Of a stretch of DNA of 64,000 nucleotides, positions 1 through 11,433 are shown one piece after another. Position 1 is the stretch's first letter. Every line of letters begins with the position of its first letter. Position numbers and translations under genes: made by a program. The notes below the pieces were generated by a model. The model did no database searches. It saw nothing but the letters and a program-made list of their open reading frames with translations, and had not been told where the DNA came from. The DNA is taken from positions 1 through 64,000 of the forward strand of contig NIVC01003272.1 of the NCBI GenBank assembly GCA_002269645.1, written 5' to 3'. The stretch comes from Macrostomum lignano. Taxonomy: Eukaryota.

Positions 1-130
1 CCCTGGTCACGCTGGAAGCTAATGAAAAACAGTTGGAAATCAATCAACAATTAGAATCCAACCAGTATGCGCCTATAAAAAAATCCTGCAAAGGAACACC
101 AAGAGAGGAGTCGCAACTTAGTTAACAAAT

Positions 131-3100
131 ATGAAACTCTCATCTGGTGAAAAAGCAAAGTACCCACAAAATAAGCAGGAACAAGAGAAATTAGAGCAAT
201 TAATCCATTTAAAAGAGTCGGAGCTTGCCATTGAAGAGATTAATTTTGCACAGAGGAAGTTTACAGAACATTACATAGAGTACACAATCCCAATAAAACG
301 GCACCACCGCAAAACATCTACGACTATAAGACAGCATCCAATCAGTTGTTGATCACACACTCAAAACACGCAAGACCTTTAAAACTACAGATATCATTCA
401 AGATTGCGTTTTATATGCCTGCAAAACCCACTGAACATCTCGAGTATTACATGACAACAAAGGCAAAGCCTTTCACACCTACAGACACACTGGATCCTTT
501 CCTTCAAGATGTCACTAAGAAAATTGAAGCGTTTACATCCAGAGGTTCCGGATGGGTCGTGGGAGGGATTCAAAGAGCGACTGTCATGGTCATGAAATAT
601 GACCCACTTAAAGCCTCCTCTTATATAGAGCTCCGCATAAGCTTGCCAGCAAAAAAGCTTGCATAAATGTTAAAATAAAGACAATTGCTGTGCTCTATGG
701 GCAGTTCTTTCTGCACTTCTTCATGATAGTGTCCCTGACACCACCCCGAAAGAACCTCAAATTATCAATAATTATTTCAACTACTATCTCATGAATGGCG
801 AAAGAAGGGAATCAGGTTTGACAAAGGAGGCTTGGCGATCTCTCAGATTCCCAAAGCTAGAAGAAGTGTTTAATAACAAAATTAGAATCACAGTCTTTGA
901 GTGGAGTGAAAAAACTGAGAAAGTTCAACCGGTCAGATGTAGCAAAGACGTTTTAGATCCTGAGGGGAAAAGGCGGACTGAAGTGGATCTTCTAGTGATT
1001 GGTAATTTACTAGAGGAGGCTCACTATGTTTGGATTAAATCATTCAAGACTCATTCACAAGCAGTTGAATAATCATCACGAGGCTGTTGCCATCTGCCGC
1101 TTGTGCCTTAAGCATTACAGTGGACCTGAGCGTCTTGAAAACTATCAGAGCATGAATTATCATGTGAGGATCACCCACAACTGCTCTCTTCCTTCAGCTG
1201 AAGAGAAGTATCTCCGTTTTAAGAACTATCACAAGATGGAGAAGCTCCCATTTGTTGTATATGCTGATTTCGAATGCTCAATCATGCCAGAAACTCAAAA
1301 ACATGTCCCAATTCAGTAGCATATGCCTTTATTAATACAAAAGGACTTGTTGAGTATAATTATTTCTTTGGAGAGCAGTGTGTGGAGCAGTTTATTGCCA
1401 GAATGTTAGAGTTGCAAAAAGTGATTAGCACCCTTCAGCCTGTTCCAATAATGATGACTGAGGAGGATGAAAGCAATTTCCTATCAGCAACTCATTGCCA
1501 CATCTGCAGGAAACAGTTAACTTGCACTGATTTAAAAACCCCACCGTTAGGGACCACTGCCACTATACTGGGAAATTTAGAGGTGCAGCGCATAAACACC
1601 TGTAATCTAAAGCTAAAATCGAAACATTCATGATCTAACGATATTTTGTCACAACGCAAAGAACTATGACATGCATTAATAGTTTAAAAAATCGGCATGA
1701 TTCAAGACATACACCTTGACTGCATCGCAGAGAACAAGGAGAAGTTTAAGTGTGTTGATATTAAACAGGATAATTCGGTTAAAGGTTCGAGTGAAGGTAA
1801 AATAAGACTGAAGGATTCATTTCAATTTCTAGCTGCCAGTCTAGACGAAACTAAGCAAGAATCTAAAAGAGAGAACAATGTACATATACAAAGATATTTG
1901 CAAGTAAAATTAACAACAATGATGAATCATTTAAACTTTTAAGAAAGAAAGGCTTCTACCCTATGAAAATATTACTGGGTATCACGTATTTGAAGAAGGT
2001 TTACCACCACAGGAGAAGTTCTTTTCAAAGCTAACAGACTCTGGAATCTCTGACAAAGACTATGAGCACGCGAAGCATGTCTATAATTACTTTAATTGTC
2101 AAAAACTTCTTCCAGTATCACCTGCTTTACCTCTTCACAGATGTGTTTCTGCTGGCTGATGTGTTTGAAACCTTCAGATACACCTGGTACACAGCATATG
2201 GCCTCGATCCAGCACATTATGTGTCTCTGCCTGCCACTAGCTGGGAATCTTTGCTTAAAATGAAAAGGATCAAGATCCAGATTGGTACATTGAACTTCTT
2301 ACAGACATTGACATGTACAATTTTGTCGAATCGTCAAAGCGAGGTGGGATCTCAATTTGCCTTAACAGGTATGCAAAAGCAAACAATCCCTACATTGAAT
2401 CTTACAATAAGGAGCAGCCCTCAAACTACATTACTTACTTGGACGCTAATAATCTCTACGGGTGGGCGATGAGTCAAGATCTTCCAGTTAGAGATTTTGG
2501 ATGGCTATCAGAATCAAATAAGACTTTTCTTAGGCTGCCATTTATGAGGTTGATGTTTACATTCCACCAGAGCTTCACGACTATTTCTCTGACTTTCCAC
2601 CCTTCCCAGAGAACATCAAGTGCCCGAAAATAATCGAAACTCCCAATGATAATAATGGAACTTGGCACCTGTCAGGAACAGAAAAAGAACATACAGAGAA
2701 ACTAACACAGAATCTAAACAACAAGACACGTTACAAAATTCATTACAAACTGCTTCAGTATTTTATCTCACTTGGTTGCAGGGTCACCAAAGTTCACAGG
2801 GCTCTTACATTTACAGAGGAAGCGTGGATGAAACCCTACATTGATAAGAACACCCAGTTTAGGACCAAAGCAACCAACGACTTTGACAAGAACCTCTTTA
2901 AGTTGGCAAACAACTCTGTCTATGGCAAGACTCTTGAGAATGAGCGGAAAAGAACAAACCTGAAACTTGTTACCTCATCAGAGCCTGCTGTTATTCAGGC
3001 AAATATGTCAAAGCCAATATTCAAAGAACTCCATATCTTTAATAGCTACTTAGGTGTGATCATATTTTACAAAACCAAGGTGACGCTGCGCAAGCCGATC

Positions 3101-3702
3101 TATACAGGTGTCACTGTTCTCGACGAATCAAAACGTCTGATGTACCAGTTCTTCTATGGCATGAAGCAGCAGTATAAGGATAAAATGAAACTCTTGTACA
3201 CCGACACAGACAGTTTTATTATGGACATTCAAACAGAAGACATTTATCAGGACATGCTGCAGCAAAAAGATTTGTTTGACTTGTCTGAGTATGATGAATC
3301 TTTCAGGACACAGAATGGCGATCAAGTGTTTGACGCCACTAACAAGAAAGTGATTGGGAAAATGAAGGACGAGATTGCTGGTGACATAATCACTGAATTC
3401 ATTGGGTTGAGAGCAAAGTCCTATTTTGTAAAATGTGAGTCGTCAGACCCAATTAAAAAATCAAAGGGAATTCCGAAACGCGTGTTAGGAAGGAAATTAA
3501 TGAAGCTGAATACAGAGACGCCTTGGATTGCAACAAAAAGACATCACATGAGTTCTCAAAGCTACAATCTAAAAACCATATTATTCACACAATTCAGCAG
3601 AAGAAGATTGGACTGTCAGGTGCAGATAACAAGAGATTCATTTTTGATGGCAATATTAACAGTCTACCGTTCGGGCACTGGAGATTAGGTTTAGGAGGTT
3701 GA
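131..3702 (+). pseudogene. polB: Protein-primed family B DNA polymerase (pPolB), multiply frameshifted
   Basis: Motifs across ORF fragments: RGSGW...SSYI (N-term), YADFEC (ExoI), HCHIC..DHCHYTGKFRGAAH (EndoVII-like insert, across a frameshift), TDVFLLADVFETFR (ExoIII), YLDANNLYGWAM (A), KLANNSVYGKT (B), YTDTDS (C), GKMKDE, FIGLRAKSY. The true start may lie upstream of the window. Confidence 0.96.
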
Positions 3703-3746
3703 GATTAGGTTTAGGTTTAAGAGAAAGTTTAATAAACCTCATAAAA

Positions 3747-4145
3747 ATGACGACAAATAACTTTCTTGAAGATTTGGCTAACGAACTGGAAATCCCAAAC
3801 TTTAGAGGAATATTTATGAGGGACACTCTGCCTGATTTTCCTCTAAGAAAAGAATGCGGCATCATGAACTTTGACACCACCCGACAAGTCAGGATCTCAT
3901 TGGGTTTGCTGGGTGATTGATCCCGATCGCAAGCACAAGTGTTATTACTTCGATAGCTATGGGACGGCAGTACCAGAAGAGCTAAGAAATTATATGAAGG
4001 GAAAAAATATAAAGAAATTTATCGCTCAGACTTTATTCTCCAAGGTCTTAGCAGTGATATTTGCGGTGAGCTGTGCATGACTGTTTTGTATGCAATGACT
4101 AAAACGCGAAAATACAAGGAAATTATTCTTACCTGTGCTTCATAA
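3747..4145 (+). pseudogene. Adenain-like (C5) maturation cysteine protease, frameshifted
   Basis: Reconstructed MTTNNFLEDLANELEIPNFRGIFMRDTLP...GSHWVCW...YYFDSYG...LQGLSSDICGELC, giving the His-Asp-Gln-Cys catalytic order of adenain. Confidence 0.88.
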
Positions 4146-10446: not shown

Positions 10447-10480
10447 GAAATCACAATTGCTTAATGATTTCTGCAAAGTT

Positions 10481-10690
10481 TTAGTAGCTGTCGTAATCTT
10501 TTACGTAGGTTACTCCATACTTATGAAACCAGCGTCTTTGGAGAGCTAGATTAATATTAGGGACATTGATATCAATGCCGGGCCAATATTTTCTCATGTA
10601 CTCGCTGCATTCAAGTTTGCATCGGTACTTGGATTTGTAATTAGGCTCGTGCGCTTTGTAATAAGAACCTGGAGAGACAACTGGAAACAT
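10481..10690 (-). CDS. Orphan 69-aa basic, Tyr-rich protein next to the Polinton terminal region
   Basis: MFPVVSPGSYYKAHEPNYKSKYRCKLECSEYMRKYWPG...; ATG in the same AAAAATG context as other Polinton genes. Confidence 0.45.
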   Translation of the reverse strand: MFPVVSPGSYYKAHEPNYKSKYRCKLECSEYMRKYWPGIDINVPNINLALQRRWFHKYGVTYVKDYDSY

Positions 10691-10869
10691 TTTTAGAGAA
10701 AATTTAGATTTTTTTCGGAGGATGAGCACCCTGCGCTGATGATTTAAAGTCTTAGGGATCTGGTTTCGCGTTGCGGATTGAATGTGGGGAGAAGAATGCA
10801 GATTATTTTCTGATTGTTTCGAAGATGCTATGGGTGGATGTCAGTGGATTATGTAGGACACTTGTTATG

Positions 10870-11433
10870 CTCTGATAATATAGATGGATTTAGGGGGATT
10901 ATGGATGACGTTTTGTGAGCGAGTAGGACCCTGATTCAGGGATAATATGGATGGATTTAATACGATTATGTTCGAAGTTTTCAGAGCAAGTGCGAACCCT
11001 CCCCTTTTTTCAAGATTCTGTCAGGGATAATGTGGATGGATTTAATGGGATTATGGAGGAGGTTTTGTGGGCGAGTGCGACCCCCCTTTTTTCTGATTCT
11101 GTCAGGGATAATATGGATGGATTTAGGTGGATTATGGAGGACGTTTTGTGAGCGAGTGCGACCTCCCTTTTTTTCTGATTCTGTCAGGGACAATATAGAT
11201 GGATTTAATGGGATTATGGAGGAGGTGAAAAATTTTGTCCCAGAAGCCCCCTCATGCATTCTACTAAAGCCACAAAAAGAAAAATGTAGCGCGTTATCCC
11301 ATCACCAAAATAGCTTGAAGCTGAAAACATCGAAATCGAAACGCATGCAACGGTTAGTCGAAGTTAAGGAAATGATCGCTAAATCGCAGAATTTTTTCAA
11401 TAAATTAAAGTTTGGCCAAAAATTTCAACTACT
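10870..11433. repeat. Polinton right terminal region: ~81-bp subterminal direct repeats and ACTACT end (probable TIR)
   Basis: GATTCTGTCAGGGATAAT.. units at 11014, 11095, 11177 plus degenerate copies from about 10870; ACTACT at 11428-11433. The partner TIR is not visible. Confidence 0.7.

Follow-up and report, generated by a model that had tools for sequence, protein, structure and literature searches.

A damaged Polinton with an apparently divergent capsid in a Macrostomum lignano contig

Polintons, or Mavericks (Polintoviricetes, Orthopolintovirales), are an already well-known kind of virus-like mobile element, common in animal genomes, and their insertions are known in many invertebrates (10.1101/2025.04.19.649669, in part). 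Broadly, those described in vertebrates combine a protein-primed DNA polymerase B (pPolB), a packaging ATPase, a protease, a major capsid protein (MCP), a penton and small conserved genes in opposed modules, and they are bounded by terminal repeats with (AGT)2 or (AG)3 ends and reported lengths of 46-1447 bp; degraded copies are the rule, amounting to 96% in vertebrates (PMC8097293, in part). The Beta adintoviruses encode an OTU-bearing PolB of a divergent class, less than 30% identical to the pfam03175 type, and carry accessory genes named GasderminX and Cupiennin (PMC8502044, in part). Exchange of modules between Polinton lineages (PMC8502044; 10.1101/2023.08.22.554363, each in part) and high-copy expansions (PMC11131425, in part) have been previously described. 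Here we analyse positions 1 to 64,000 of the forward strand of contig NIVC01003272.1 of Macrostomum lignano (assembly GCA_002269645.1), a stretch of 64,000 nucleotides referred to as the window, whose first 11.3 kb (40% GC, gene-dense and intron-free) form the right-hand portion of a Polinton. With high confidence, we regard it as a damaged genomic copy belonging to a young and numerous Polinton/Maverick family, with a PolB probably of the divergent “Beta”-like type and a capsid placed in a small unnamed clade.

The hallmark genes of Polintons are all present in this portion: a pPolB with vOTU, exonuclease and polymerase motifs, a double-jelly-roll (DJR) MCP, a penton, a packaging ATPase and an adenain/Ulp1-type protease. 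An earlier note on this DNA had identified the element as a Polinton or adintovirus from these five genes, and all five proved to be real. They lie in three blocks, namely PolB and the protease on the plus strand, then orfE, orfD, the ATPase gene, orfC and orfA on the minus strand, and finally the MCP and the penton, again on the plus strand; the “two divergent cassettes” of the same note were right as to the 30-nt A/T-rich spacer between divergent starts (8296-8325) and incomplete as to the layout. The window copy resembles the vertebrate Polintons (PMC8097293, in part) in its gene set and opposed modules, in a small gene situated between the ATPase and another conserved gene and in the mostly degraded condition of the copies, and differs from them in its order of PolB-protease, five-gene minus block and MCP-penton. 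A set of 108 PolB-related loci was retrieved, several of which have the same gene set together with a retrovirus-like (rve) integrase. Neither the element nor its end occurs a second time within the window, and positions 1-16,000 gave no Rfam match.

The MCP gene (8326-9564, plus strand) has an in-frame stop near 8425 and, relative to its relatives, a 16-codon in-frame gap near 8730, while the penton gene (9584-10446, plus strand) has one frame change near 10,080-10,140. Pfam matches of window pieces were weak (DJR-like, E 5e-5; Pox_A32, E 7e-4; Peptidase_C48, E 0.0015), and the folds were therefore tested. The stop-free 378-residue part of the MCP, with a 96-row alignment, gave a model of pLDDT 91.0 and pTM 0.90; in a search of 48,161 solved chains its best match was the PBCV-1 capsid (Z 21.8, rmsd 3.6, 323 aligned), followed by faustovirus, Sputnik and mavirus, and jelly-roll capsid or scaffold proteins of viruses made up the 16 best chains, with Z from 21.8 down to 9.0. 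Foldseek concurs, with identities of 6-13% among the 50 viral matches listed. Since the penton is split in the window copy, a naturally occurring relative with an unbroken frame, P0009, was folded instead; its identity to the two penton pieces is 64% and 78%. The P0009 model (pLDDT 61) has the mavirus penton as top match (Z 8.8, 201 aligned, rmsd 14.1) and also matches a PBCV-1 chain (Z 8.5, 111 aligned, rmsd 3.3) and EhV-201, aviadenovirus and Sputnik chains, the six best chains all being viral capsids or pentons; the top Foldseek matches were minor capsid proteins (E 1e-9). Jelly-roll folds were thus recovered for both of the proteins that had been named as MCP and penton, with moderate confidence for the latter by way of P0009.

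By sequence comparison, the capsid appears divergent and falls into a small unnamed branch among the sequences retrieved. A profile search of 1.84 billion representatives gave 281 MCP matches (15 at E<1e-30), and seven relatives are 65-74% identical to the window MCP. In a FastTree tree of 108 rows, comprising proteins of 340-520 residues (shorter or longer matches and four very distant locus proteins were excluded), the window MCP stands in a seven-row clade with support of 100, which P0147 joins at 99, and it is at most 27% identical to any sequence outside its own clade. Its bit score on PF21738 is 23, against 190 for a typical Polinton MCP. These values agree with the divergence claimed for the MCP in the earlier note. 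The suggestion of an undescribed lineage is plausible, as judged against the retrieved sequences rather than against Repbase or named adintovirus protein sets: a literature search found no description of this family, and Repbase, Dfam or adintovirus protein sets may already hold the lineage.

The relatives of the MCP (P0001-P0007 and P0147-P0149, at 65-74% identity, P0147 being at 40%) and of the penton (P0008-P0019, at 52-64%) come from ENA, Logan and JGI, always on short contigs. None of the 30 clusters looked up had a name beyond “hypothetical”, and no genomic context for the capsid clade was found in IMG/VR (with the window MCP, P0154, P0152 and P0147 as queries) or in JGI metagenomes (with alignment A1 as query). 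The family described here ties to a host a capsid clade that is elsewhere represented only by short unnamed contigs. P0148 and P0019 represent near-identical capsid fragments (more than 90% identity) in ENA assemblies; P0148 also carries a large internal deletion, being another decayed member of the family.

PolB, protease and ATPase, unlike the divergent capsid, look ordinary for Polintons. The pPolB gene (1..3705, plus strand) comprises a terminal-protein region, a vOTU, an exonuclease with an endonuclease-VII-type Zn insert and a polymerase, the domain names following PMC11071308 (in part), and is broken into at least 12 frame segments. A profile built from 71 full-length relatives recognized 14 collinear frame segments at 280-3681, 12 of them at E<0.01, covering profile positions 136-1252 of 1496. 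Every motif sought is present (vOTU Cys and His, Exo I-III, Pol A-C and the CxxC of the endonuclease-VII-type insert), the terminal-protein region being matched by the profile only. The start of PolB is uncertain, and the window probably opens inside the gene or just upstream of it. Long relatives show top identities of 41-48% (best 120 of 578 matches), and PolB relatives are matched by PF03175 and PF02945; the largest PolB piece of the window has no PF03175 match at E 0.05, and relatives match weakly (61.5 bits) or not at all. A PDB sequence search with the PolB profile yielded only a chance zinc-finger match. The adenain/Ulp1-type maturation protease (3747..4145, plus strand) is split into three frame pieces, which keep the catalytic His, Asp and Gln/Cys motifs and match 13, 15 and 1 of the 108 loci; its Pfam matches are weak (C48/C57, the best value being that given above for Peptidase_C48), and a relative in L010 matches Peptidase_C5. 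The A32/FtsK-type genome-packaging ATPase (5666..6466, minus strand), with Walker A, Walker B and RGRH motifs, is in two frame pieces matching 17 and 13 of the 108 loci (best E 6e-22), besides the Pox_A32 match already mentioned. A 78-nt stretch at 20234-20311, beside an exon of a host kinase gene, is 78% identical to part of the ATPase gene (5807-5883), and is perhaps a scrap of an older Polinton.

The element shares with the Beta adintoviruses (PMC8502044, in part) an OTU-bearing PolB apparently far from pfam03175, adenain, FtsK-type ATPase, hexon and penton, and probable equivalents of the accessory membrane-active genes; it seems to differ from them in its MCP, which is at most 13% identical to the 50 viral Foldseek matches listed, with no close adintovirus hexon among them. 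A Beta assignment is likely, as a comparison of features rather than of alignments to named Alpha or Beta references. Five loci from IMG/VR and JGI (L002, L010, L064, L088 and L095) also resemble the window copy: the polymerase part of PolB is 40-45% identical and the first protease piece 50-59%, and they share the ATPase, the orfA family and a gene pair in which family A8 is followed by family A7. Their MCPs, in contrast, are ~22% identical to that of the window, and these loci carry a complete pX-bearing gene as well as recognizable fibre genes; in L002, L010, L088 and L095 these genes lie on one strand, unlike in the window.

Regarding the right end, the stretch occupied by the element is present in 20 of 24 listed runs, from eight studies and under two organism labels, and four of them (X1, X2, X13 and X14) were compared, as contigs, with positions 1-12,500. 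In each of these runs, the highest depths among the 30 bins are those of the two bins at 10,426-11,259, and contig depth falls 40- to 140-fold in the following bin. The earlier note had set the boundary at 11,433, for which the depth expected in that next bin is at least 27,400 in X1, 6,079 in X2, 138 in X13 and 30 in X14, against the observed 2,701, 368, 18.7 and 8.9, respectively. Furthermore, X13 shows a loose end before 10,454 (24 of 1763 loose ends being listed), and an X1 contig of ~89% identity bridges 11378-11532 and thus spans 11433. The depth peak, the loose end, the depth drop, the bridging contig and the minus-strand end 5'-AGTAGA together place the putative right terminal inverted repeat most likely at 10,454-11,265, including a subterminal array of an 82-nt unit repeated 3.5 times (10936-11226); the element would accordingly end near 11,265, which fits the depth better than 11,433, contig depth being a blunt measure for placing a boundary. 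The following stretch (11266..11433) is flank, probably outside the element, and contains a canonical-looking (ACT)2 motif at 11428-11433. A repeat of this extent would fall within the 46-1447 bp of vertebrate Polintons and would have, like theirs, an AG-type end, differing in that this end reads AGTAGA (PMC8097293, in part). In X13 and X14, the depth of 10426-11259 exceeds that of the interior by a factor of 5 to 10, above what two repeats per element would produce; short non-autonomous derivatives of the element may exist.

The window copy is broken in PolB, in the protease (three pieces), the ATPase (two), orfE (at least three), orfA (a stop), the MCP (stop and gap) and the penton (frame change), and is open in orfC and orfD. 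As written, it is unable to make PolB, protease, ATPase, MCP or penton, and the pseudogenization proposed in the earlier note is therefore confirmed for every hallmark gene. The same note called the provirus old, and this part did not survive the comparison with the contigs. A near-unique, long-dead fossil would indeed account for the breaks in every core gene, for the 14 segments of PolB, for the stop and the 16-codon gap of the MCP and for the end branch of the latter (0.22 against 0.08-0.16 in its clade mates), but we consider it very unlikely: the long pieces listed inside the element differ from the window copy in only 105 of 4713 letters (2.2%) in X13, which has no cover over 1-1251, and in 48 of 2954 (1.6%) in X14, these being runs from two other studies. 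Variant contigs are counted in thousands (11,787 pieces on the stretch in X1 and 7,914 in X2), and 5177 of the X1 pieces (44%) are at least 99% alike, with 369 under 90%. Of the 12 indels listed out of 119 rows, nine are borne by the majority of the local X1 depth, so that most of the family sequence would be without those breaks. Summed depth in X1 ranges from 19,000 to 248,000 over the element, against ~2,000 for a neighbouring retroelement. These contigs point to a numerous and little diverged family.

The breaks could also be errors of a long-read assembly in an unpolished repeat, the copy being essentially intact in the animal; gap letters are frequent relative to substitutions (61 to 105 in X13, 45 to 48 in X14), many of the frame changes are of a single base, and the adjoining long terminal repeat (LTR) element is similarly fragmented. 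Taken as the whole explanation, this is highly improbable, since the 48-nt in-frame gap and the in-frame stops in the MCP and orfA fit real decay, as do the mostly transition-type substitutions (233 of 385 differing places in X1). Probably both contribute, that is, real decay (stops, the 48-nt gap, transitions) and assembly error (single-base frame changes in a high-copy repeat). Scarcely credible to us is an integrase-less Polinton-like virus or a helper-dependent derivative, inserted passively or in trans. It would agree with the lack of an integrase in the visible 11.3 kb and with an MCP clade far from the MCPs of integrase-bearing loci (19-23% identity, on separate branches); on the other hand, the window edge truncates the element, so that an integrase could still lie beyond it, 49 integrase-family open reading frames were found among the 108 PolB-related loci, and the accessory genes match those of integrase-bearing Polintons. 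Some points also weigh against the damaged copy of a young and numerous Polinton family that we prefer. The integrase profile found no significant match among the 194 frames of positions 1-16,000, the element being truncated by the left edge, and the visible 11.3 kb shows neither integrase, left terminus nor the 6-bp target-site duplication of Polintons, its left end lying outside the window. The end at 11,265 is AGTAGA instead of the canonical (AGT)2, the canonical motif being located at 11,433, and the penton fold depends on a relative (P0009) and a model of pLDDT 61. Moreover, contig depth, when summed, neither gives a copy number nor allows parts to be ranked, X1 may be the source sample, and “young” stands for low divergence and gives no date.

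The earlier note had also pointed to several orphan genes. With profiles of accessory families (including A6, A7 and A8) built from the 108 loci, orfA and orfE match conserved Polinton families and orfD probably does, leaving orfC alone. OrfA (4140..4889, minus strand; in-frame stop near 4710) is a gene conserved among Polintons, whose product has a hydrophobic stretch of two helices that weakly resembles SLATT (SLATT_1 at E 0.008, below the cut-off); direct search found it in five of the 108 loci (E 1e-10 to 1e-4), it scores 51.8 bits against the conserved two-helix family (z 12, none of 200 shuffles as good), and its Atlas match of 0.95 is to unnamed clusters, with low recognition. The label GasderminX for orfA was dropped, as the pX-bearing family is A6 and orfA belongs to a different one. 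OrfE (7037..8295, minus strand), in at least three pieces and with a Gln/Pro-rich repeat at 7485-7601, belongs to family A8: its three pieces are the three best of the 194 window frames with the A8 profile, and in order (z 4.3; 0 of 300 and 3 of 1000 shuffles as good; C-terminus at E 2.7e-4, the other two pieces alone not being significant at E 0.14).

OrfD (6634..7020, minus strand) is an open 128-codon frame with GSG/GNG motifs followed by an amphipathic helix (hydrophobic moment 0.57). It comes after a gene of family A8, the place that A7 has in L002, L010, L064, L088 and L095, and probably belongs to the A7 family (membrane-active, “Cupiennin”-like as a tentative label), its direct comparison with A7 giving z 2.6, 5 of 300 and 18 of 1000 shuffles as good, and a non-significant E of 0.21. 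We infer the correspondence of A6 and A7 with the GasderminX and Cupiennin of adintoviruses. OrfC (4924..5649, minus strand) is the one real orphan, mostly unexplained: an open 241-codon frame with an 84-nt duplication, coiled-coil-like beyond its first ~45 residues and with an SMC-like coiled-coil match, possibly a fibre or stalk. Those first residues weakly resemble the pX-bearing family A6 (E 0.005, probability 7%; 5 of 1000 shuffles as good, and 20 of 300 over the whole length); the pX-like part of A6 (tentatively “GasderminX”-like) was not found in orfC, and the Atlas search gave no match to it (best 0.77). Membership of orfC in the common Polinton fibre family was rejected, 394 of 1000 shuffles being equally good.

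The spacer at 8296-8325, with 28 A/T among its 30 nt and with a T-rich tract and a TAG 7 nt before the MCP start, is real but ordinary, as divergent spacers of 26 nt and 28 nt occur in other Polintons (L048 and L032, respectively). All eight start codons have 80-93% A/T upstream, and co-directional genes lie 16-34 nt apart, with the exception of one 167-nt gap. This only long intergenic gap contains four copies of a 21-nt unit (6508..6590), a possible promoter or enhancer array, whose variant units appear as contig loose ends. A pyrimidine-rich tract plus AG is found within 10 nt before five of the eight starts and seven of 78 control starts (shuffles, P 0.0005-0.002; Fisher, P 0.001), and the strict YAG version before three of eight and four of 78 (shuffles, P 0.009; Fisher, P 0.016); these P values are optimistic, because the criterion was set post hoc and the controls come from 10 loci with guessed first-ATG starts. 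The acceptor-like AG sites precede the MCP, penton, ATPase, orfC and orfD starts, and TATA-like motifs accompany two of the eight starts, compared with 39 of 78 among the controls. The idea of an ATAAAC promoter box common to the genes was rejected, the motif being present before one of the eight starts only.

Such acceptor-like sites hint at leader splicing, either as spliced-leader trans-splicing by the host or with a shared leader as in adenoviruses. If true, it would explain two divergent starts 30 nt apart; the tight packing would be explained by leader splicing or by overlapping promoters inside neighbouring genes. A broader picture, of a still-active, high-copy lineage with its own capsid clade, whose long precursors are resolved at acceptors before the starts and whose gene-by-gene promoters have been lost, seems doubtful to us; under it, the near-identity between the two organism labels would reflect recent spread by particles. 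No RNA run is listed among those containing the stretch (X14, whose RNA origin is a guess, has a profile like that of the DNA runs and carries no claim on expression). In the host kinase gene at 19809-21480, a CAG acceptor lies 7 nt before the likely start codon, in agreement with trans-splicing or an intron in the 5' part.

An intact member of the family would replicate as in the domain model of PMC11071308 (in part): synthesis would be primed at the AGTAG ends by the terminal protein, which is fused to pPolB and would be released by the vOTU domain. Insertion of new copies would be the task of an rve integrase, which is expected to the left of the window. The MCP, penton, ATPase and protease could build and mature an icosahedral particle, packaging the genome in a DJR capsid, and orfA, orfD and orfE may contribute accessory proteins of the virion or of membranes. 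Since Polintons with such genes are widespread in animals, the significance of the element as it stands is small; should the acceptor signal prove real and the family prove active in an animal that is kept in the laboratory and covered by many sequencing runs, it would provide a place to study how Polinton genes are expressed and, as has long been asked, whether Polintons form particles.

Several other features were observed in the window. Directly right of the element lies a fragmented LTR retrotransposon (11440-14890, minus strand), which we take to be of the Bel/Pao type from its look, with a weak aspartyl-protease Pfam match and a 26-nt unit repeated 6.6 times at 14692-14862. It is followed by a small MITE-like element (15232-15681), whose inverted ends match perfectly over 19 nt and whose interior contains tandem units of 77 nt. 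The intron-containing host protein kinase (Pkinase; 19809-21480, minus strand) is presumably of the phosphorylase-kinase-gamma kind. Satellite arrays of 18-nt and 14/29-nt units occupy 23188-25574, two sets being opposed around a central stretch in a foldback-like manner. A Gypsy-type retroelement with stops (27437-30249, minus strand) shows RVT_1, RNase H, protease and DUF7041 matches, its listed open reading frames being without the integrase part, and a gene piece of the YhhN family (lysoplasmalogenase-like) is located at 33444-34175 on the minus strand. Finally, 53300-64000 is occupied by a macro-repeat, the ~3 kb units of which include arrays of 30 nt, tracts rich in GA and short runs of CTAACC.

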